Shown here one piece after another: positions 2,756-23,958 of a stretch of 34,491 nucleotides of DNA. Within the stretch, counting starts at the first letter, position 1; each line of letters starts with the position of its first letter. The stretch lies in the NCBI GenBank assembly GCA_036229005.1, contig JAZAMN010000051.1:1-34491 (forward strand), in the 5' to 3' direction. Under the pieces are notes generated by a model. The model was given only the letters and a program-made list of their open reading frames with translations, was not told where the DNA came from and made no database searches. The translations under genes were made by a program, and so were the position numbers. This DNA comes from Myxococcota bacterium. GTDB taxonomy: Bacteria; Myxococcota_A; UBA796; CAJQPC01.

Positions 2756-4206
2756 AGACCCTCCCCGCCCAAGGCCAGAAGGCCGCCGACATCCTGCAGC
2801 AGCTCCAAGACGCCAAGGCCCAGGACCTGGACTGGCAGTCCGGCCGGGCCATGGGCTTTGTGTACGTGCCCGACCCCGAGACCCAGCGGGTGGCCAAGGA
2901 GGCCTTCATGGCCTTCCTGACCGAGAACGGCCTGGACCCCACCAGCTTCCAGTCGCTGCTCCGCCTGGAGAACGACCTGGTCGCCATGGGCGCAGCACAC
3001 CTGCGCGGGGACGAGCACACGGTCGGGAACTTCACCAGCGGGGGCACGGAGTCCTGCATGCTGGCGGTCAAGTCGGCCCGGGACTACGCCGCCGACCGCA
3101 AGGGCATCACGGCCCCCGAGATGGTGCTGCCGGTGACCGCGCACGCCGCCTTCCACAAGGCCGCCCACTACTTCGGCATCAAGAAGGTGCTGGTGCCGGT
3201 GGACCCGGAGACCTTCAAGGCTGACCTGGACGCCGTCCGCGCGGCCATCAACGAGAACACCGTCCTGATCGTCGGCTCCGCGCCCGCCTACGCCCACGGG
3301 GTGGCCGATCCCATCCGCGAGATGGGCCGGATCGCCCTTGAGCGCGACGTGCTCTTCCACGTGGACGGCTGCATCGGCGGCTGGCTGCTGCCGTACATGC
3401 GGCGGCTGGGCGTGGACACCCCGGACTTCGACTTCTCGGTGCCGGGCGTGACCTCCATCTCCATGGACCTGCACAAGTACGCCTACACCCCCAAGGGCGC
3501 GTCGCTGGTTCTCTACAAGTCCAAGGAGATCCGGCGCTATCAGATCTTCACCTGCCCCGACTGGACCGGGTACACCATCATCAACCCGACCATCCAGAGC
3601 TCCAAGTCCGGGGGCCCCCTCGCCGCCGCCTGGGCCGTGCTCCACCACATCGGCGACGAGGGCTACCTGCGCATGGCCAAGGGTGTGCACGAGGCCACCC
3701 AGCGCTTCGTCCAGGGCGTCCGCGCGATCCCCGGCCTGCGCGTGATGGGCGAGCCCGAGATGTGCCTGGTCGCGGTGACCAGCGACGAGCTCGACATCTT
3801 CCACGTCATCGACGAGATGAAGGTGCGCGGCTGGTACATCCAGCCCCAGCTGGCCTTTGGCGAGTACAAGGAGAACTTCCACGTCTCCATGCAGCACTCC
3901 AGCGTCGGTCTGGTCGACGACATGCTCGCCGCCCTGCGCGAGTCGGTCGAGGCCGCCCGCAAGATCCCCGCCACCGGCGTGGGCAAGAACATCGCCCAGA
4001 TGGCCCAGGGCATCGACCCCAGCACTCTGACCGACGAGATGCTGGAGAACCTGCTCAAGCTGGCCGGCATCGGAGGGAGCGCCCAGCAGGGACTGCCCGA
4101 CCGCCTGCAGCAGGTCAACGAGATCCTGAACAACCTGCCGGTGGAGCTCAACGGCGCGCTGCTGACCGCGTACTTCAACCAGATGTTCACCCCCACCCAG
4201 GACTGA
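2752..4206 (+). CDS. PLP-dependent decarboxylase/lyase, sphingosine-1-phosphate lyase-like
   Basis: 484 aa with FTSGGTES, TAHAAFHKAAHYFG, HVDGCIGG and the PLP-lysine motif SISMDLHKYAYTPKGAS. Confidence 0.85.
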   Translation: MKTLPAQGQKAADILQQLQDAKAQDLDWQSGRAMGFVYVPDPETQRVAKEAFMAFLTENGLDPTSFQSLLRLENDLVAMGAAHLRGDEHTVGNFTSGGTESCMLAVKSARDYAADRKGITAPEMVLPVTAHAAFHKAAHYFGIKKVLVPVDPETFKADLDAVRAAINENTVLIVGSAPAYAHGVADPIREMGRIALERDVLFHVDGCIGGWLLPYMRRLGVDTPDFDFSVPGVTSISMDLHKYAYTPKGASLVLYKSKEIRRYQIFTCPDWTGYTIINPTIQSSKSGGPLAAAWAVLHHIGDEGYLRMAKGVHEATQRFVQGVRAIPGLRVMGEPEMCLVAVTSDELDIFHVIDEMKVRGWYIQPQLAFGEYKENFHVSMQHSSVGLVDDMLAALRESVEAARKIPATGVGKNIAQMAQGIDPSTLTDEMLENLLKLAGIGGSAQQGLPDRLQQVNEILNNLPVELNGALLTAYFNQMFTPTQD

Positions 4207-4245
4207 GCGCACAGGGGTTAGGCTCCCCGTCAAAGGAGCCCCCCA

Positions 4246-4962
4246 ATGCAGCCTCTGGGCACCCCCTGCTGGCTCGACATGCAGACCGATCTGGACCGCG
4301 CCGTCCCCTTCTACGCCGCGGTCCTGGGCTGGGAGCTGGTCCCCGTCGGCGAGCACCGCATGGCCTTCGCCGGCGGCGCCCCGGTCGCACTGCTCAGCCC
4401 CTCGGACAGCCCGGGCCCCTGGCGGGTCTACCTGGCCTGCCAGGACATCGACCTGATCTGCGGAAGGGCCCAGGACCTGGGCGCGCGGGTGGTGCTCGCC
4501 GGCGGCCGCCTCGGTGACCTCGGGCGCATGGCCAGCTTCCAGGATCCCGGGGGGACCCTGACCATGCTGTGGCAGGCCGACAAGCACCAGGGCTTCCAGA
4601 TCCGCGCCTCCCCCGGCTTCCCCGTCTGGTTCGAGAACTGGAGCGCCGACCGCGCCCGCACCCGCGACTTCTACGCGCAGCTCTTTGGCCTGCAGGCCCA
4701 GCCCATGCCCGGGATGGACTACGGCACGCTGCACAGCCCCGATGGCGCCCCCAGGTTCGGGGTCGGGCAGAGGGAGGAGGACGGTGGCCCCCCCGCTTGG
4801 ATGGTCTACCTCCACACCCCCGACTGCGACGCCGCCTCTGCGCAGGTCTCCGCCAGCGAGGGCACCGTCAGCCAGCCCCCAACCGACACGCCCTTCGGCC
4901 GCATCGCGGTGTGCGCGGACCCGCTGGGGGCGCGGTTCACGCTGATCACCCCCGCGGGCTGA
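4246..4962 (+). CDS. VOC/glyoxalase family protein, two-domain
   Basis: Duplicated VOC motifs (GTPCWLDM...FYAAVLGW; GFPVWFE...FYAQLFG; PPTDTPFGRIAVCADPLGARF). AAGGAG SD. Confidence 0.9.
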   Translation: MQPLGTPCWLDMQTDLDRAVPFYAAVLGWELVPVGEHRMAFAGGAPVALLSPSDSPGPWRVYLACQDIDLICGRAQDLGARVVLAGGRLGDLGRMASFQDPGGTLTMLWQADKHQGFQIRASPGFPVWFENWSADRARTRDFYAQLFGLQAQPMPGMDYGTLHSPDGAPRFGVGQREEDGGPPAWMVYLHTPDCDAASAQVSASEGTVSQPPTDTPFGRIAVCADPLGARFTLITPAG

Positions 4963-5232
4963 GCGCAACGGGGGGCGAACGCAACACGGGCCCGCGCAAG
5001 TCGGGTCGAACGCAACAAGGCCCAGCGCAACCCTGCCCGAACGCAACAATGCGGCGGGCCGACGCGCCGTTCCGACCGGGCCCCTACGCGATTTCAATAC
5101 CTTGCGCAACCGCCCTGGCCGCGCTGCCCTCGCAGCAGCCCGGATTTGTCGCACTCAGGCCCACTTGCGCAGCCCGCTGTTGCGTTCAGGCCCACTTGCG
5201 CAGCCCGCCGTTGCGTTCAGGCCCACTTGCGC
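4963..5232. repeat. Symmetric repeat element copy 1: 3x31 bp, spacer with IHF-like site, inverted 3x31 bp
   Basis: Units GCGCAA-N8-GAACGCAACA start at 4963, 4994 and 5025. Reverse-complement units start at 5147, 5178 and 5209. Central ATTTCAATACCTTG at 5091-5104. Confidence 0.9.
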
Positions 5233-5235
5233 AGC

Positions 5236-8200
5236 CTATTTGGAGCGGTTCTGCATGAACTGCTCCACCGCCGCGTTGTTCTCGGCGCGGTAGACGTGGT
5301 ACGGCCCGCTGCGGATGGGGTTCCCGTCGGTCTTGCCCTCGGCGTCGCTGTGTCGGAAGGTCTTTCCGTCCCAGATGTACCAGCGTCGGGCGACCCCGCT
5401 GTTGCCTGAGCTCTCCATGCAGTCCATCAGCGGGCGGTTGCCCTTGTCGGTGTCCACGAACTGCACGTCGTAGATCACGATGATGTGCCCGTCGGACACG
5501 ATGCAGTCCATGGTCCGCCAGTCCTTGGGGTCGTCCAGCCGCAGCGCCGACTTGTTGAAGCCCGCGCAGGCAAAGGTCATCATTCGGCTGTTGCGCCCAG
5601 TCTTGGGGGTCGCCTCGGACGTGCCCAGCTTGTAGACCGGCGTGAAGTCGTCGTACATGCCGGAGCCGTTGATCACGTTCCAGGCAAAGCCGATGCAGTC
5701 CAACCCCAGCTTGAGGTGCAGCCACTGCTGCAGGTGCGCCTGGGCCTTGTCGGGGTCGTCAAAGGCAGCCAGCTCGTCGCCCAGGCTGGGGTCGGTGGCG
5801 ATGGCCTCCTGGATGGCTGCCTGCAGCTCTTCGGGGGTCCCCTTGCCCTGCCAGGCCTTGAGGAAGGACGCGCTGTGGGCCACCCCGTCGTCCGTGTCCC
5901 CGTTCAGGATGGCCGCCGAGTAGGTGCTCACCTTGTAGCCGGCCGTGGTGCCCTCCAACTGGTCGATGAGCCCCAGGTAGTCGTTGTTGTGCTTCTTGTT
6001 GTGCTCGGCGCCGAAGTTCCTGTATTCGCAGGAGATCTGCACCTTGGCCTGCACGCCCCCTGCCAGCGTCAGGGTGACGGGCACCTGCGTGTACGCCTCA
6101 AAGAGCTCCTCCATCCACTGCTTGGCCAGGGCCTCGTCGTACTCGCGCGTGCCGTAGGCGCTGGCCGGGCCGTCCACCTTGGCGCGCTCATGCCCTGCCT
6201 GCTTCTCCAGGTCGATGAGGTAGCGGTCCACCTCGTCGGCGACCCGCCCCAGGCCGACCAGGTCCAGCAGCCGCTTGCGCTCCCAGAGGCCCGCCAGCCC
6301 CTCGGAGAGATCGGGCAGCAGCGGGAGCAGGTCGGGGGCCTGCTCGAGCCCCTTGAGGATGGCCATGTGGATCCCCGCCTCCCGGCCAAGGTCCCGGCTC
6401 TGGGCCATGCGCTGGCGGAGCTCCGGCCCGTAGACCGCCCCAATGGGCACCCCCCTGGCTTCCGCCAGCACCCCCCGGGGATCGGCCACACAGATGCTCT
6501 GCTCAGGCTCCGCCTTGGCCAGGCCAGTCTCCCGGCTGTCCCGCCCGGTCCCCAGATCCGGCACACCGCGCAGCATCAGCGGCCTGAGATCCTGGCCCAG
6601 CTCCGGCAGCCCCAGGCTGAAGCCGCCCCACCCGGCTCCCGCGCCCACGTCCTTGTCGTTGGCCGGCACCGGCTGCCCGACCGCCTGGGCCAGGTGGGTC
6701 CCGCCCTGCACGTTCCCAGCGATGTCGGACAGCCGCGTCCCGGACTGCCCCTGGAAGGTCGTCCCAAAGACCACGCCCTTCTCCTCCAGCTCGTCCGCCG
6801 CGTCGAGCCAGTCCTGCGCGCGGTGCAGCTCCACGCTCTTGTCCTTCTCCACTCTATAGGCGGCCTCGGCGACCACGATGGCGTCCTCCAGCGCGCTGTT
6901 GTAGGTCGCCGCCTGGTTCCCCCAGCTCGTCTCCTTGGCGTCGGGGTGTGCAGCCACAAGCTGCGCGAACGCCCGCCGCGCGATGTCCTTCCCGCCCTTG
7001 CTCCCCAGCGAGTTGCTCAGCTTGCCGATCACCCCCGCGACTCGCTCCGAGATCGGGTAGTCCGTCAGCGCGCGTCCCTGGACCTTCACGCCCTTCACGT
7101 CGCCCAGCTTGGACCTGGCCCAGCTCACCGCGCAGGCCGCCTGGATCCGCGGGTCCGCATAGATCGCCGAGAGCACCCCCAGGCGCTCCGGGCTGGTCCG
7201 CACCGCGAAGGCCGCCAGGTTCTGCTTGTCGTGGCTGAGCCCCGCCACCACCTGCTCAAAGGCCGCCTGTCCCGGCTCCGCGCTGCGGGAGAGCATCACG
7301 CGGTCCGCCTCGTACAGATCCCGCACGTGGGTCCACTTGATCGGCTCCTGGATGCCCACGGGACCCAGGACCTCGTCGGCGGTCACCACCAGCCCGTAGT
7401 GCTTTGTGCCAATGGGCTCCAGGGCCAGGCCCACCATGCTGAGCGCAGCCTCGATGTCCTCCATCCCCTCGCGGAGCTTGCCGTCCTCCCCGTACATCAC
7501 GCCGCCCAGCATCTCGGACACGTTGGAGTAGCCCTCCCCAGACTCGTCCACGAGCGTGTTCTGGTTCAGCCCAAAGGAGGCATAGACCGCGTCGTACCCG
7601 TTGACGTCCGACCCGATCCCGTCCTCCATCTGCGCCCGCACCCGCACCAGCCGGATCTCCGTCTCGTTGAGCCCGACCGCCGCCAGCGCCTCGTCCGAGG
7701 GCAGGTTCGCGAAGGTCTCCCCGTTGATCGTCGCGGCCTCTCCCCCCGCGTGCCAGCCGTAGTTCTCCTTGAACATGTCCCCGTCGAACTGCACGGAGAA
7801 CCCACCCACCGACACCCGGAGCAAGTCCCCGTAGAGCGGCTTGTCCCCGTCGCTCGACTTCCCCCGATCCGCCTTGCCGTGCTGCAGCTCCCCGACCTGG
7901 ACGCCGGGCCCCGAGGCCTGGAGAGGAGCGGACTTCTGGGTGGCCTTGGAGTTGCCGCCCCCATCCTTGGGCTCCTGGGTCTTTGCAGACTTCTGCGACA
8001 CCTTCTGCGCAGGCGAGGCCACCACGAGTTGGGCCTTGAGCACGTCCCGCAGGTACTCGCCGCCCAGCGGCTCCCCCATCACCGTCAGCCCCTCGGCCTG
8101 GTCGATGAACGCCACCGCGGCCCCCAGGTCTCCCCGCGCCAGGGCGGCCATTCGCCGGCCCAGCGCCCCCTTGAGCTCGGCGATCAACGCCTGCACCAGC

Positions 8201-11160
8201 TCCTCTCGACCGCTCTGCGCGTAGCCCCACTCCTGGACCCACTCGCGCCCGGCCTCGAAGGCGTCGTCGACCCCCTTGGACCCCGCCAGGTGCCGCTGCA
8301 GCACCTCCATGACCTTGTCGTCCGGGCTGCTGACGAAGGCACAGACGTCCTCCGCTGTGGGCAGCCAGCCCCCCAGCGCCTCGCCCTGCTCCGCCAAGGC
8401 CTCGTCCGCCCCGAGCTGCGCCAGGTACCAGGCCGACTGCCCGCTCGTGGTCTCCGCATAGAGGGTCTGCCAGCGCTCCCCCCGCTCCTGGGGCGTGGCC
8501 TGGACCTCCGCCTGCAGCGCCGCCAGCGCCTGCGCGCGCCCCTCGCTCTCCAAGGGGACCCCCAAGGCCCACGCGGTCCCCAGCTTGTCCGCGTCCACGG
8601 TCTTCTGTCCCTTGGGACCGTCCAGCAGCACGCGCCCCTGCGCATCGACCCCCACAGCCCGGAGCACCTGCCCGCCCTGCTCGACCAGCACGCTGCGCCC
8701 CTGCCCCATGCTGGCCAGCGCATCCGGCGCCGCCTCCATCGAGGCCCCCGCCGCCACCGCCAGCGCCCGCGTGTCCCCCACCGCGATGCCCTTCTCCATG
8801 CGCACCATCTCCAGCGCGTCGGCGTAGCCGTGCCCCGGGTACGGGTTCGGCAGGCCCAGGTGGTGCAGCGCGTCCGCCAGCGCGTTGAGCTCCCCCCGGT
8901 TCGCCGATCGCGAGCTGCTCTCTCCCTCCGCCACCGGCGAGATGGCCAGCAGCCGCAGGTGGTAGTCCGCCCGCCGCTGGGGCTCCGCCTGCAAGTCCGC
9001 GTCGTGAGCCAGCGCGTCCCGGGCCGCCAGGAGCTGCGCCTCGTCCAGCGCCGCCGTGTTCATCAGCAGGTCGACCTCCTTGGCCTCCCGCACCCCACTG
9101 CGCGGCACGTAGCGCGGAGCGCCATTCACCAGCAGCTCCGCGCGCGCCGACGACCCCGGCCCCGTCTCCCCGTGCAGGGTCCAGCTCTGCGCGGGCAGCT
9201 CCCCCTCGGCCCCCTTGGCGTACACATCCGGGAACACCGGCAGGCTGCCGGGCGCCCGGCTCACCATGAAGCGCCGCACGCTCAGTCCCGGGGGAGGGTC
9301 GAAGAGGGCGGCGGGGTCCCGCTTCTCAGGGGCCACGTCCACCAACTGGGCCTCATCGAGCCCCGCGCTGGGATCGACCTCCTGCCCCCGCGAGGTCACC
9401 TCGGCCGACACCGGCCCGCCGTTGGTGTAGCGCGCCTCCACCCAGCCCAGGCCTTCGCCCACCCGCACCTGCAGCCAGGCCACCCCGCCCTCCTCCTGCA
9501 GCCGCCCGGTCCACGCCAGGCGGTCGCCCAGGTGAACGGAGCCGATCACCTCGCTGGCGCCCAGATCGCCAAAGATGGGCATGTCGAGCTCCAGCAGGTT
9601 CGGTAGGCCCTCGACTGTGAGCCACCCAGCGACCTCTCCCTCCTCCCCTTGGGACTCCCAGCCCTCCGTCCAGTCTGTGGACCGGCCCAGCGCCTGCTCC
9701 GCCTCCCCCTTGAGGGTCTGCTCCTGGGGCATCTCCTCCAGCGCCGAGCGCACCACCTTGTTCACCGTCAGCTCGTGCTTGGGGGCCAGCTTACGCTTCC
9801 GGGTCTCGCTCTCCACCACCAGCGGGGGCGCCCCCAGCACCTGCATGTGCTCGCTGAGCACCGCCTTCCAGCCCTCCGCCGTCTGGATCTGACCGGGCGC
9901 CGGCAGCGGCGTCACCCCTCCCCCCTGGATGCCCCCCGCGTGCCCCAGATCCAGGCTCAGGGCCTGCTCCAACCCCGCCTCAATGGCCGACTGGACGGCG
10001 TCGTGGCCCTCTACCAGCCAGGTGATCTCGTCCAGCGCCGGGCCCTCGGGGGGCGCCATCTTGAGCAGCCCGCGCACCCACTTGACCGCCGGCAGCTCGT
10101 TGGCCTTGCGCTGGTTCTTGCGCAGGGTCTTCCAGTCCTGGTTCTTCTTCTTGAACAGCGCCTTGAGGCCCTTGTAGTCCTGGCCGTCCTCGAACTTCAC
10201 CAGCATCGGCTTCCAGTGGTCCCGCACCTGGTCCACGTGCTTGAGCAGGTACTGACCGGCTGCGTAGCGCTCCAGCATGCGGTCCTGCACCGCGCTGAGA
10301 TGCCCGAGCTCGACCGACTCCCCAGTGCTCTGTCCCATCGGCGAGGAGAACACGGCCTTGTTCGCCTTCTCCCGCACGCCGCCGCGGATGATGTCCCGCA
10401 CGCCCTTGTCCTGCGCGAAGGGCTTGTAGGGCTCGGCCAGGCCCCCCGGACTGAGCTCGCTGTCCATCAGCGTGTTGGGGGCGCTCCCCCCATCCAGGGC
10501 GGCGCCGCGACGGTCCCGTAGCGCCCGGATCTGCTGGTCCTGCGCCGGGGAGCCGGGGTCGCCGAGTTCGCCGTTCAGATCCTCCAGGGTCCGACCACGC
10601 ACGTTGCCGTGCAGCGCCGCGAGCTTCTCGGCCTTGAGCTGCTCCACGCGGCTCTGGGGGAGCGCGGCTTCGCCCTCCAGGTTGGACGCCGCGGTGTACA
10701 CGTGCACGCCGGCGCCGGCCTGGGTGTAGCGGAGCTCCGCCAGCATCTGCTTGCCCTTCTTCTCCAGGGACAGCAGCTCACAGAAGGTGCCGTCGGGCAC
10801 CCGGGCCCCGGTCGTCTTTCCGTCTGCGTCCCGGGTCAAGGCGTTGCTGTCGGTGACCAGCGCGTACCCGATGGCGGCGTGGTCGGGTGCGCCCCCGGGG
10901 TCGGGGTTGGGGAGCTCCGCTCCGACGCTGGGGTCGGAGCCTGCGGTGAGCGCGAACTCCACGTCGTCCTCGACCGGGCAGGTGGCCTGCTCGACCTCCT
11001 CGATCAGCGCGGGCTGGCTGGGGAGCCACATCGCGCCGGCCAGCGGGTCGGAGAGCGGGTTGCTCAGGTAGTCCGTCGCCGCCGGGCCCTGGAGGCTCCC
11101 CATGGGGAGCGCCTGGTCCTGCGAATGTGCCGTTTCGTCCAAGGTCAGGGGGCCGCCCAT
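5236..11160 (-). CDS. Giant multidomain protein, putative cell-wall hydrolase/effector (SH3-like, lysozyme-like and C-terminal NlpC/P60-like modules)
   Basis: 1974-aa ORF with strong SD (GGAGGAGAG). C-terminal motifs LGLDCIGFAWNV, DCIVSDGHIIVIYD and MESSG. SH3b-like segment WLQVRVGEGLGWVEARY. The CDS is secure; the domain calls are tentative. Confidence 0.75.
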   Translation of the reverse strand: MGGPLTLDETAHSQDQALPMGSLQGPAATDYLSNPLSDPLAGAMWLPSQPALIEEVEQATCPVEDDVEFALTAGSDPSVGAELPNPDPGGAPDHAAIGYALVTDSNALTRDADGKTTGARVPDGTFCELLSLEKKGKQMLAELRYTQAGAGVHVYTAASNLEGEAALPQSRVEQLKAEKLAALHGNVRGRTLEDLNGELGDPGSPAQDQQIRALRDRRGAALDGGSAPNTLMDSELSPGGLAEPYKPFAQDKGVRDIIRGGVREKANKAVFSSPMGQSTGESVELGHLSAVQDRMLERYAAGQYLLKHVDQVRDHWKPMLVKFEDGQDYKGLKALFKKKNQDWKTLRKNQRKANELPAVKWVRGLLKMAPPEGPALDEITWLVEGHDAVQSAIEAGLEQALSLDLGHAGGIQGGGVTPLPAPGQIQTAEGWKAVLSEHMQVLGAPPLVVESETRKRKLAPKHELTVNKVVRSALEEMPQEQTLKGEAEQALGRSTDWTEGWESQGEEGEVAGWLTVEGLPNLLELDMPIFGDLGASEVIGSVHLGDRLAWTGRLQEEGGVAWLQVRVGEGLGWVEARYTNGGPVSAEVTSRGQEVDPSAGLDEAQLVDVAPEKRDPAALFDPPPGLSVRRFMVSRAPGSLPVFPDVYAKGAEGELPAQSWTLHGETGPGSSARAELLVNGAPRYVPRSGVREAKEVDLLMNTAALDEAQLLAARDALAHDADLQAEPQRRADYHLRLLAISPVAEGESSSRSANRGELNALADALHHLGLPNPYPGHGYADALEMVRMEKGIAVGDTRALAVAAGASMEAAPDALASMGQGRSVLVEQGGQVLRAVGVDAQGRVLLDGPKGQKTVDADKLGTAWALGVPLESEGRAQALAALQAEVQATPQERGERWQTLYAETTSGQSAWYLAQLGADEALAEQGEALGGWLPTAEDVCAFVSSPDDKVMEVLQRHLAGSKGVDDAFEAGREWVQEWGYAQSGREELVQALIAELKGALGRRMAALARGDLGAAVAFIDQAEGLTVMGEPLGGEYLRDVLKAQLVVASPAQKVSQKSAKTQEPKDGGGNSKATQKSAPLQASGPGVQVGELQHGKADRGKSSDGDKPLYGDLLRVSVGGFSVQFDGDMFKENYGWHAGGEAATINGETFANLPSDEALAAVGLNETEIRLVRVRAQMEDGIGSDVNGYDAVYASFGLNQNTLVDESGEGYSNVSEMLGGVMYGEDGKLREGMEDIEAALSMVGLALEPIGTKHYGLVVTADEVLGPVGIQEPIKWTHVRDLYEADRVMLSRSAEPGQAAFEQVVAGLSHDKQNLAAFAVRTSPERLGVLSAIYADPRIQAACAVSWARSKLGDVKGVKVQGRALTDYPISERVAGVIGKLSNSLGSKGGKDIARRAFAQLVAAHPDAKETSWGNQAATYNSALEDAIVVAEAAYRVEKDKSVELHRAQDWLDAADELEEKGVVFGTTFQGQSGTRLSDIAGNVQGGTHLAQAVGQPVPANDKDVGAGAGWGGFSLGLPELGQDLRPLMLRGVPDLGTGRDSRETGLAKAEPEQSICVADPRGVLAEARGVPIGAVYGPELRQRMAQSRDLGREAGIHMAILKGLEQAPDLLPLLPDLSEGLAGLWERKRLLDLVGLGRVADEVDRYLIDLEKQAGHERAKVDGPASAYGTREYDEALAKQWMEELFEAYTQVPVTLTLAGGVQAKVQISCEYRNFGAEHNKKHNNDYLGLIDQLEGTTAGYKVSTYSAAILNGDTDDGVAHSASFLKAWQGKGTPEELQAAIQEAIATDPSLGDELAAFDDPDKAQAHLQQWLHLKLGLDCIGFAWNVINGSGMYDDFTPVYKLGTSEATPKTGRNSRMMTFACAGFNKSALRLDDPKDWRTMDCIVSDGHIIVIYDVQFVDTDKGNRPLMDCMESSGNSGVARRWYIWDGKTFRHSDAEGKTDGNPIRSGPYHVYRAENNAAVEQFMQNRSK

Positions 11161-20705: not shown

Positions 20706-21950
20706 ATGACGCACCTGTTCCTCCTGCTGGCCTGCGCCGGACGCACCGAGCCGGACCCCGCGCCCATGACCGAGGTCGACCCCCAGGTCAAGCCCGTGGA
20801 GATGCCTCTGGTGGACCCCGACGTCCCGCGGCCTGACGAAGGGGACAGCCCCACCTCGCCGACGCCAGGGTCCATCGGGGGTGCGACCAACGCGTTCGCT
20901 CAGGGGTTGTACGCGCAGCTCCCGAGCGACGGGAACCTCTTCTTCTCCCCGGCCTCCATCGAGACGGCGATGGCGATGACCCTGGCGGGGGCCAATGGGG
21001 AGACGCAGCAGGCGCTGGCGCAAGGCCTGCACCTGGACTTCCCGGACGCGCACCAGGCGATGGGCGCGTGGCTCAAGGCGCAGAACAGCAGCGACGGGGA
21101 CTTCACGCTGCGCATGGTGAACCGCATCTGGCCGGCACAGGGCCTGGAGCTCAAGCAGGAGTTCGTGGACACGACGCAGACCCACTACGCGGTGGACTTC
21201 CAGGCCTTGGACTACAGCCAGGCGGAGGCCGCGCGGCAGACCATCAACGGCTGGGTGGAGACCCAGACCGAGGAGCGGATCCGGGACCTGATCCCCAAGG
21301 GCAGCATCCTGCCTTCGACCCGACTGGTGCTGACCAACGCGGTGTACTTCCTGGCGGACTGGGAGTCCCCCTTTGAGCCGGCCAGCACGCGCAAGCGCGC
21401 CTTCCAGACGCCAAGCGGAGAGGTGCAGGTGGACATGATGCGCCAGACCGGCGGCTACGGATACGCCAAGCTCAAGGGGGCCCAGGCGCTGGCGATCCCC
21501 TACAAGGGCGGCGAGCAGGAGATGGTGTTGGTGCTGCCTGACCCTGACGTCCCGGTCTCGGAGCTGGGGCTGGAGACGCTGAGTGCAGACACCTCCCAGA
21601 GCGCCCGGATCGATCTGGCCATGCCCAAGCTGGAGTTCGGCTGGGGCGACACCCTGCGGGCGCCGCTGTTCGCGATGGGCATGGCGCCGGCCTTTGGAGA
21701 CCAGGCAGACTTCTCGGGGATGAGCGATGAGCGGCTGTTCATCGACGAGGTCGTGCACAAGGCCTGGGTGCGCGTGGACGAAGAGGGCACCGAGGCCGCG
21801 GCCGCCACGGCGGTGATGATGCGCGCGACGGGTATGCCGATGCCGGCGCAGCCCTTTGTGGTGGACCGCCCCTACCTGTTCGGGATCCGGGACGTGGCGT
21901 CGGGCGCGCTGCTGTTCGTGGGCCGCGTGGAGGACCCGACGGCCAGGTGA
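20706..21950 (+). CDS. Serpin family lipoprotein
   Basis: NLFFSPASI, INGWVETQTEERI, LVLTNAVYF, hinge VDEEGTEAAAAT and FVVDRPYLF. N-terminus MTHLFLLLAC. Confidence 0.95.
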   Translation: MTHLFLLLACAGRTEPDPAPMTEVDPQVKPVEMPLVDPDVPRPDEGDSPTSPTPGSIGGATNAFAQGLYAQLPSDGNLFFSPASIETAMAMTLAGANGETQQALAQGLHLDFPDAHQAMGAWLKAQNSSDGDFTLRMVNRIWPAQGLELKQEFVDTTQTHYAVDFQALDYSQAEAARQTINGWVETQTEERIRDLIPKGSILPSTRLVLTNAVYFLADWESPFEPASTRKRAFQTPSGEVQVDMMRQTGGYGYAKLKGAQALAIPYKGGEQEMVLVLPDPDVPVSELGLETLSADTSQSARIDLAMPKLEFGWGDTLRAPLFAMGMAPAFGDQADFSGMSDERLFIDEVVHKAWVRVDEEGTEAAAATAVMMRATGMPMPAQPFVVDRPYLFGIRDVASGALLFVGRVEDPTAR

Positions 21951-21963
21951 GCGGGGCTTGGGC

Positions 21964-22285
21964 GCGCAAGGGGGGCTGAACGCAACACGCGGGCGCGTAA
22001 GTCGGGCTGAACGCAACACGCCGGCGCGTAAGTCGGGGTGAACGCAACACGCCGCCGCGCAAGTCGGGCTGAACGCGACAAGGCGCCAGGTCTGCGGGCC
22101 GCCATCCCCGCCAAGTAGCTGAAATCCCGTTCACGCCCCGGGAGTCCCCTGCCTACCCTGGGCTCGCTCGTTGCGTTGGGAGGCACTTGCGCAGCCGGCT
22201 GTTGCGTTGGGAGCCACTTGCGCAGCCGGCTGTTGCGTTGGGAGGCACTTGCGCAGCCGGCTGTTGCGTTCGAGCCCACTCGCGC
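21964..22285. repeat. Symmetric repeat element copy 2: 4x31 bp, spacer with IHF-like site, inverted 4x31 bp
   Basis: Units start at 21964, 21995, 22026 and 22057. Reverse-complement units start at 22169, 22200, 22231 and 22262. Central CAAGTAGCTGAAAT at 22112-22125. Confidence 0.9.
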
Positions 22286-22350
22286 GCCCAGTCCGCGCCA
22301 CCCGGCCGCGGGCCACGCAGGTTAGGCCCAGAGCACCTGGAGGCAGCACC

Positions 22351-23958
<1,608 letters not shown>

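Follow-up and report, generated by a model that had tools for sequence, protein, structure and literature searches.

RESULTS AND DISCUSSION

Organization of the element and its flanking genes

The window is a stretch of 34,491 nucleotides, contig C51 of a Myxococcota bacterium genome (G000; 6.4 Mb in 74 contigs, 70% GC, 94% complete). It carries an element of 270 bases at positions 4963 to 5232, here called copy 1, which consists of three units on the plus strand, a 98-nt spacer and three inverted units. The left arm (4963 to 5048, plus strand) holds three 24-nt two-box cores (box 1, GCGCAAG/C; box 2, GAACGCAACA) with a 31-bp period, starting at 4963, 4994 and 5025, and the right arm (5147 to 5232, minus strand) holds three inverted cores with the same period, starting at 5147, 5178 and 5209. 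The spacer (5049 to 5146) has a sequence unique to copy 1 and a length that falls within a 10.5-bp series; it contains an IHF-like site, ATTTCAATACCTTG, at 5091 to 5104 on the plus strand, 42 nt from each arm and with one mismatch to WATCAANNNNTTR. On the left, the stop codon of a glyoxalase-family gene (4246 to 4962, plus strand), a host gene outside the element, lies at the edge; on the right, a convergent 1974-aa open reading frame (5236 to 11160, minus strand), also a host gene, stops 3 nt from the edge. The large reading frame has only a marginal Pfam match (BPL_C, E 2.7e-4) and an orthologue in the related genome G001.

The initial annotation had given the same coordinates, unit number, 98-nt spacer and inverted right arm, all of which were reproduced, and had stated that the element fills the gap between two convergent stop codons; indeed, it begins 1 base past the stop at 4962 and ends 3 nt short of the other. 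The core consensus proposed there fits for the most part, but left units 1 and 3 read GCGCAAC and not GCGCAAGT; likewise, CGCAA occurs twice in five of the six units, as claimed, but only once in the innermost right unit, which has three mismatches.

A second copy in the window has four units in its left arm (21964 to 22080, plus strand) and four inverted units in its right arm (22169 to 22285, minus strand), separated by an 88-nt spacer (22081 to 22168). The IHF-like site of this spacer (22112 to 22125, minus strand) is separated by 43 nt from the arm 5' of it and by 31 nt from the opposite arm.

The window gave no match to Rfam 15 (RNA families and CRISPR repeats) at the gathering score, none of the plasmids searched by blastn matched the element, and the two-unit patterns had no matches in viral contigs or in JGI metagenomes. 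In other strains, one contig crosses copy 1 gap-free, and a second has at least three substitutions in the copy 1 spacer, none of those listed falling in the IHF-like site.

Five families of head-to-head arrays

A genome-wide scan with the core, allowing up to four mismatches, returned 263 units in 48 clusters; requiring at least two units and a best unit with no more than two mismatches left 32 clusters, which form family A. Every one of these is a plus arm followed by a minus arm, head-to-head. The symmetry in unit number suggested by copy 1 is not a property of the family, whose arms range from one to six units. The spacers measure 14 nt (one copy), 24 nt (two), 35 nt (14), 45 nt (four), 56 nt (two), 87 nt (two), 88 nt (two), 98 nt (four) and 99 nt (one), and the nine different values follow a 10.6-bp phase (R 0.97; p 2e-4 in 5000 random draws). 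Thirteen 35-nt spacers are unrelated to one another (mean identity, 0.41), and the 6-nt gap between the boxes has an identity of 0.80 within arms and of 0.44 from one element to another; conservation in family A is confined to the two boxes. We postulate that arms would grow and shrink through duplication of 31-bp units, with bases that make no contacts free to drift.

The arrays are not a product of chance, since the two-unit pattern has 84 + 85 matches in the genome and the same pattern read backwards has 0 + 0, and since 187 noncoding regions emerged at period 31 from a de novo scan that yielded none at period 29 or 32. Five families were distinguished with profile models: A, with 31 elements and one mixed copy that was scored with B; B, with 13, including the mixed copy; C, with 20; D, with 44; and E, with 12. 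All 120 paired elements are head-to-head, 11 orphan arms lie mostly at contig ends, and 619 of the 628 unit steps across the five families are exactly 31 bp. The genome-wide search for the core that the initial annotation had called for thus uncovered a dispersed family (32 copies in family A and 120 elements over five families), and the dispersed, helically phased protein platform that it had envisaged gains credence from the 32 copies, the 31-bp period and the spacer lengths one turn apart.

In family D (e.g., the spacer at G000:C8:79034), a conserved inner inverted motif, CCACCGAT, is found 5 to 12 nt inside each arm; it is absent from family A. On the opposite strand, box 1 contains GTAG in families D and E, GATG in C, GTTG in B and CTTG in A, which recalls the GTAG guide of REPs and may be a coincidence.

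Spacer geometry and two proposed modes of bending

The IHF-like site had been described as exactly central. This is true of copy 1 (42/42), but it is not a rule, the site being centered in only four of the nine long copies. In all nine long family A spacers, a local motif derived from them is separated by 42 to 43 nt from the arm that lies 5' of it, so that the copy 1 motif is kept at an equal 5' distance throughout, and its distance on the 3' side is 42 nt in five copies and 31 nt in four. Exact centering is thus a special case of a fixed geometry stepped by one helical turn, and with regard to its constant 5' distance in 9/9 long family A spacers the putative IHF site does appear to be positionally fixed.

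Sites were scored against the E. coli IHF consensus with up to two mismatches. By this score all nine long family A spacers contain the site and none of 22 short spacers does; in shuffles that preserve dinucleotides, the mean count is 0.8 and the highest 4. Of the 32 family A copies, 23 are short-spacer copies without it. In relatives, spacers next to enzyme homologues could be read at 36 of the 48 scored loci (both arms legible); they are mostly 72 to 94 nt long, and the consensus is found in 1 of the 36. The earlier view of the IHF-like site as a constant part of the element therefore has to be given up: only 9 of 32 family A copies have it, all with long spacers, and it is nearly absent from the relatives' spacers. 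As a universal part it is ruled out by the short family A, the family D and the relatives' spacers. Long family C spacers have the site in three of five cases by the local motif and in one of five by the consensus, and family D has it in 4 of 43 spacers (5.8 in shuffles); this rarity outside families A and C counts against the docking-site reading developed below.

The family D spacers of 86, 87 and 97 nt show strong helical phasing of A/T dinucleotides, with a power at 10.4 bp of 1.07 versus 0.157 ± 0.024, and the 36 relatives' spacers show it as well (0.49 versus 0.127 ± 0.023). In the long family A spacers, A/T periodicity was not significant (p 0.12). We infer that an IHF site and phased A/T tracts may be two ways of bending spacers of equal length. 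The central A-run motif GAAAA-N5-GTT, possibly another bending site, is seen in spacers of other families of the order (L030, L039, L083, L099, L100, L113 and L114).

The genome encodes an IHF alpha gene above its NCBIfam cutoff and a beta-like gene that scores 96 against a cutoff of 115. A motif similar to the local one has 38 matches genome-wide, 31 of them outside predicted genes in a genome that is 91% coding, and intergenic IHF-like matches have a sigma-54-like site within 75 nt in 3 of 20 cases, versus 15 of 1024. Two matches (G000:C8:34567 and C8:74102) lie upstream of a DnaN-like gene, a possible origin region, and upstream of comEC.

Candidate partner enzymes

Searching G000 with the PF01797 profile gave no matches, and the enzymes were therefore located by a motif search, which found five paralogues, 49 to 69% identical, with LMPNH[VI]H, YI[HY]LNP and PWS. 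The HuH motif NHVH and the tyrosine motif Y[IV]HLNP are present, one paralogue having NHIH and YIYLNP. Both the missing PF01797 match and the scores against NF047646, which at 31 to 36 bits (E 1e-7 to 4e-9) lie far below the cutoff of 80 bits, count against a RAYT-like assignment. For a profile of 69 sequences the best solved match is E. coli TnpA-REP (4ER8; E 1e-6), which is also the best fold match of the predicted structure (pLDDT 94; E 5.5e-5). Its C-terminal part can be superposed on the DnaA DNA-binding domain with an rmsd of 1.7 over 65 columns (E 0.26; model helices 191 to 223), and HTH Pfam matches, weak and all below the cutoff, occur in three of the five paralogues. The model thus predicts the C-terminal HTH that distinguishes subclass 2.1/TIRYT proteins, and by their motifs and this putative HTH the enzymes fit that group. 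Among 69 homologues, the catalytic residues H, H, Y and NP hardly vary. Named homologues include Myxococcota MAGs. A homodimer prediction for the family A enzyme scored 0.00, which speaks neither way.

For each of the five genes the nearest array is of a different family and lies within 164 nt; in the background, 195 of the 5389 genes have an element within 200 nt. The end of the family A gene (G000:C32:32302-33138) is overlapped by a family A array, the family B gene has an array at 5 nt, the family C gene (on C24) has arrays on both sides at 4 and 120 nt, the family D gene has an orphan arm at 117 nt, at a contig end, and the family E gene has an array at 164 nt. Only one of the five genes is therefore flanked on both sides, and the other four, including the family A gene, on one. 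The closest protein pairs are A and B (68%) and D and E (69%), and box 1 is common within each pair. It had been suggested that a copy might lie beside a transposase-like gene, and one HUH/Y1 (RAYT-like) gene per family indeed adjoins an array. The presence of a cognate gene next to a copy of each family also agrees with the idea of a nonautonomous element with iterated enzyme sites. At L016:3303-3349, the family A enzyme reading frame enters its own array by about 47 nt, so that array units encode the low-confidence C-terminal tail of the enzyme.

All five enzyme genes have upstream a sigma-54-like site and the palindrome TGTCG-N6-CGACA, which we take to be of the CRP-family shape. The palindrome is found upstream of 53 of 69 enzyme loci, compared with 34 of 600 random genes, and also upstream of comEC and radC, a distribution that suggests co-regulation of the enzyme genes with DNA uptake.

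Enzymes and arrays in related genomes

Homologues of the enzyme occur in 27 of 61 genomes, G000 included. Among the 64 best-scoring loci of a larger list, arrays lie within 600 nt at 49, 41 with a 31-bp period and eight with a 32-bp period; the 15 loci without arrays count against the docking-site reading. Arrays were found at 0 of 14 control loci and at 12 of 300 random G000 genes. The eight loci with the 32-bp variant are L023, L030, L037, L049, L094, L095, L104 and L105. Across the relatives, box sequences vary freely and the arrays mostly take a 2+2 head-to-head form. The units found next to enzyme genes are scattered over G008 (33 matches) and G021 (21 matches), and have no matches in G003, G005 and G018. 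Seven further loci of the same order all have arrays (7/7), the lag-31 peak was absent from the two best lags at 26 loci beyond the order, and a GTDB-wide scan with the pattern returned 10 loci in three MAGs.

A possible recognition code was noticed in these data: Arg 219, in the recognition helix, accompanies 14 of 14 boxes 2 that end in CA and 3 of 30 others (44 rows, labeled by eye). On independent pairs, three to four agree and none is opposite (p 0.125), and the link was picked after the data had been seen; we regard it as a suggestive lead only.

These pairings bear on a different view of the arrays, namely, that they serve an unrelated factor, such as gyrase, a partition or nucleoid protein, or a DDE transposase acting on a MITE, and that the HUH genes are bystanders. 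A 35-bp spacer with phased flanks recalls gyrase sites, 35 bp is the commonest spacer here, also with phased flanks, and most family A copies have inner ends of the form CA...TG. However, there is one enzyme per family in G000, the arrays at 49 of the 64 best-scoring loci differ in sequence while keeping the same geometry, and the elements have neither target duplications nor conserved outer termini, all of which makes such a factor very improbable. The initial annotation had proposed an undescribed class of system and had mentioned parS and topoisomerase loading; those suggestions yield to a partner that is most likely a RAYT-like HUH enzyme, which places the system beside REPtrons/TIRtrons and E. 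coli BIME-1.

In our judgment the most probable reading, at roughly 0.65, is that copy 1 is one of 32 head-to-head arrays that would act as a double-stranded docking site for the RAYT-like HUH/Y1 enzyme encoded at G000:C32:32302-33138 and that would have been spread by that enzyme. Enzyme subunits would use their C-terminal HTH to bind the boxes and would sit along a single face of the helix. A short spacer would let the arms meet directly; in long family A spacers an IHF U-turn would bring them together, and in family D and the relatives the curvature of phased A/T tracts would do so. The assembled complex would then nick and rejoin a strand through the catalytic tyrosine, so that the element would be copied to gene ends and neighboring genes at times reshaped, and the enzyme would be expressed together with the DNA-uptake genes. 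The presence of copy 1 in the other strains that cover it counts against this docking-and-spread reading.

Recognition of duplex or single-stranded DNA

Recognition might instead proceed by a REPIN-like single-strand fold-back, in which the arms pair as a long imperfect hairpin that the enzyme recognizes and cuts, like TnpA-REP. The copy 1 single strand does fold arm-to-arm (-86 kcal/mol, z -5.8), which counts against the duplex reading, although such folding would be expected of any inverted array. The competence-type promoter would coincide with incoming single strands, and the studied Y1 enzymes require single-stranded DNA, according to the accessible parts of PMC6006769 and PMC3333891. However, real arm pairs form weaker duplexes than random ones (-66.4 versus -75.3 ± 2.0 kcal/mol; a perfect duplex, -139.7 kcal/mol). 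At variable positions in all five families, an element's own arms are less alike than random arm pairs (0.27 versus 0.436 ± 0.025 in family A), since both arms carry the G/C skew of one strand. Neither would the length of a hairpin loop be quantized at 10.5 nt, nor would the loop carry a positioned IHF site or phased A/T tracts. Single cores fold like shuffles (-2.2 versus -1.6 kcal/mol), with no hairpin, and a GTAG/CGTC tag is found in box 1 of 0 of 237 family A units, in line with the earlier remark that the units are not REP-like palindromes. Low arm complementarity together with helical quantization favors recognition of duplex DNA over a REP-type hairpin, and we consider the fold-back decidedly unlikely. 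In the available text of PMC3333891, E. coli TnpA-REP did not shift or bind double-stranded substrates; by this precedent, a duplex reading departs from the studied enzymes.

The strand skew of the elements had no association with transcription and agreed weakly with the inferred replication strand (66/112, r 0.3).

Possible mobility and rearranged gene junctions

Recent copies of entire elements, with near-identical spacers and unrelated flanks, were found in family D at C20:283379 and C58:1012 (92%) and at C27:33192 and C58:6356 (88%), and near-identical elements lie near each other in family A (C4:163464 and 164326, 97%) and in family B (a pair on C57, 97%). No target duplication was detected among 119 elements (longest flank repeat, 4.68 versus 4.54 ± 0.09), nor did the same 119 have a conserved outer end or cleavage motif, so that the mobile unit would be one without defined ends, a point counted against the main reading. 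A classical DDE-transposase MITE was rejected on the lack of target site duplications and conserved termini, an identity of 0.41 among 35-nt spacers, and the presence of a few recent pairs only.

Gene junctions were compared with 2.0 of the 6.9 Mb of G001, where both orthologues were present for 13 gene pairs that flank elements. In five of the 13, two of them at family A elements, the genes are adjacent without an element, with gaps of about -6, 16, 87, 104 and 165 nt; the empty orthologous sites that the initial annotation had recommended looking for were thus found. The other eight junctions, both window copies among them, are rearranged (an extra gene, an inversion or an order swap), compared with 8 of 71 element-free gaps of at least 150 nt (Fisher p 2.3e-4). 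The elements hence appear to be linked to rearranged gene junctions; the sample is small, and labile junctions may simply be where elements settle. An exact empty site for copy 1 was not found in G001, because the glyoxalase gene has a different position there. In G001 it sits between the large gene and the gene that follows; in G000 it is found across the large gene from that position, and the new junction is where the element lies (window positions 4246 to 11160, L057). At the position of copy 2, between the serpin and fumarase genes (window positions 20706 to 22351), G001 has about 950 nt that are apparently a gene (G001:C10:95515-96467). At G000:C57:93000-107500, coverage lapsed between a pair of family B elements in run X2 and between one B and one D element in run X3; no contig bridges these stretches, and they are not evidence.

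One explanation for the junctions may be competence-regulated, site-specific gene exchange, in which HUH/Y1 enzymes would read helically phased duplex arrays through a re-programmable HTH, assemble on a platform bent by IHF or by curvature, and join incoming or neighboring DNA there. The arrays would then resemble cassette sites spread over the genome, at which genes are gained, lost or locally reordered. The rearrangement of 8 of 13 element junctions versus 8 of 71 element-free ones speaks for this explanation, which we regard as possible but doubtful.

The setting of the elements also invites a reading as host-serving 3' elements, that is, as transcription roadblocks, RNA stem-loops or chromosome-organizing sites, with the HUH protein a domesticated binder that moves nothing now. 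By gene calls from a purpose-written script, 114 of the 120 elements have a gene that ends towards them, 83 within 30 nt, and 19 of 32 family A elements lie between convergent genes, compared with 107 of 518 gaps of at least 200 nt. Copy 1 persists in other strains, and E. coli REPs act as terminators and mRNA stabilizers, as stated in the accessible portion of bioRxiv 2026.03.23.713779. However, the near invariance of H, H, Y and NP in 69 homologues, the existence of empty sites and recent copies, and the 2.0 Mb of G001 in which no convincing arrays were found all argue against such a role, and helical phasing and avoided arm complementarity would be senseless for an RNA hairpin; we consider a purely host-serving element unlikely.

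Relation to known repeat systems

The enzymes and arrays are closest to the TIRtron/TIRYT systems (Di Nocera 2013, PMC3733652), which correspond to TnpA-Y1 subclass 2.1 (Quentin 2018, PMC6006769) and to RAYT group 1 (Bertels 2017, PMC5581495), as these are described in the available texts. The enzymes share with that group NHVH, Y[IV]HLNP, a serine motif after the tyrosine, a DnaA-related C-terminal HTH and a long protein, and the arrays share with TIRtrons the lack of a GTAG hairpin at the gene, dispersed inverted-repeat families, and several paralogues, each with its own repeat. Unlike the subclass 2.1 enzymes as characterized there, those studied here form a divergent clade without a PF01797 match; unlike TIRtrons as described in the same texts, which have inverted repeats on both sides of the gene, the arrays are one-sided in four of five cases and are built of tandem two-box units with a 31-bp period and quantized spacers that carry putative IHF sites or phased A/T tracts, and the enzyme genes have a putative competence-type promoter. 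In the tested register, the TIRtron motif GGGGWSAS is found in only 4 of 237 family A units and 14 of 93 family B units.

The E. coli BIME-1/RIB elements and their REPtron (TnpA-REP, PDB 4ER8) likewise have two inverted halves at gene 3' ends and a related HUH enzyme. Going by the accessible text of PMC3333891, BIME-1 has an IHF site in the long linker and none in the short one, as family A does by sequence alone. In addition, as with REPs, the elements are dispersed as extragenic inverted pairs at the 3' ends of genes, and one copy adjoins the cognate enzyme gene. However, REP halves are single GTAG-footed hairpins read as single strands, whereas the halves here are arrays of nonpalindromic units; furthermore, the sequence of the BIME-1 L linker is conserved, whereas here every copy has a linker of its own, in which nothing but the length and the position of the IHF site is preserved.

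Phased protein boxes on either side of an IHF bend are also known from IHF-assisted synaptic sites, such as P1 parS, lambda attP and transposon ends with iterated sites. Such sites are single or paired and are tied to ParB, an integrase or a DDE transposase, unlike the approximately 120 dispersed sites here, which are tied to Y1 HUH enzymes.

Tandem two-box 31-bp units, quantized spacers and a switch between IHF and curvature are not described in the open texts consulted and did not turn up in searches of the open literature, although the TIR sequence lists of PMC3733652 might hold similar units. On our best reading, the element is a TIRtron/BIME-1-like variant, and the IHF-versus-curvature rule and the link to rearranged junctions would be new.

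Among the Y1 HUH proteins, subclass 2.1 ranks second in size; it occurs in about 15% of species (PMC6006769, as available) and has no defined target or activity in the accessible parts of PMC6006769, PMC3733652 and PMC5581495. In the present case, precise candidate substrates can be named for five enzymes of a single genome and for dozens in relatives, together with a geometric rule that a 5-bp insertion could break. If an HUH relative does read bent duplex DNA through an HTH, this would be a departure from the hairpin-reading IS200 and REP enzymes. The occurrence of an IHF site or of phased A/T tracts at equal spacer lengths is a natural experiment on DNA looping, and the system may bear on how REP-type repeats spread and on their use to the host. 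If the gene-exchange reading were true, the five enzyme-array pairs would be natural orthogonal tools.

Other observations in the window

Over positions 3500 to 6500, the three best-covering data sets are marine metagenomes from three studies, and no RNA data set is among those listed. Taken with the Myxococcota MAGs among the named enzyme homologues, this points to a probable marine relative of the myxobacteria. In runs X2 and X3, a contig that covers the copy 2 spacer (window positions 22047 to 22213) has 16 differences in 153 to 167 nt, gap-free. This divergence is about 10 times the 1% of neighboring contigs and would reflect either a divergent allele or a contig from another copy. At positions 29 to 98 the window also carries an inverted repeat that is unrelated to the arrays, with 29-nt arms that are 93% complementary and a 12-nt loop.
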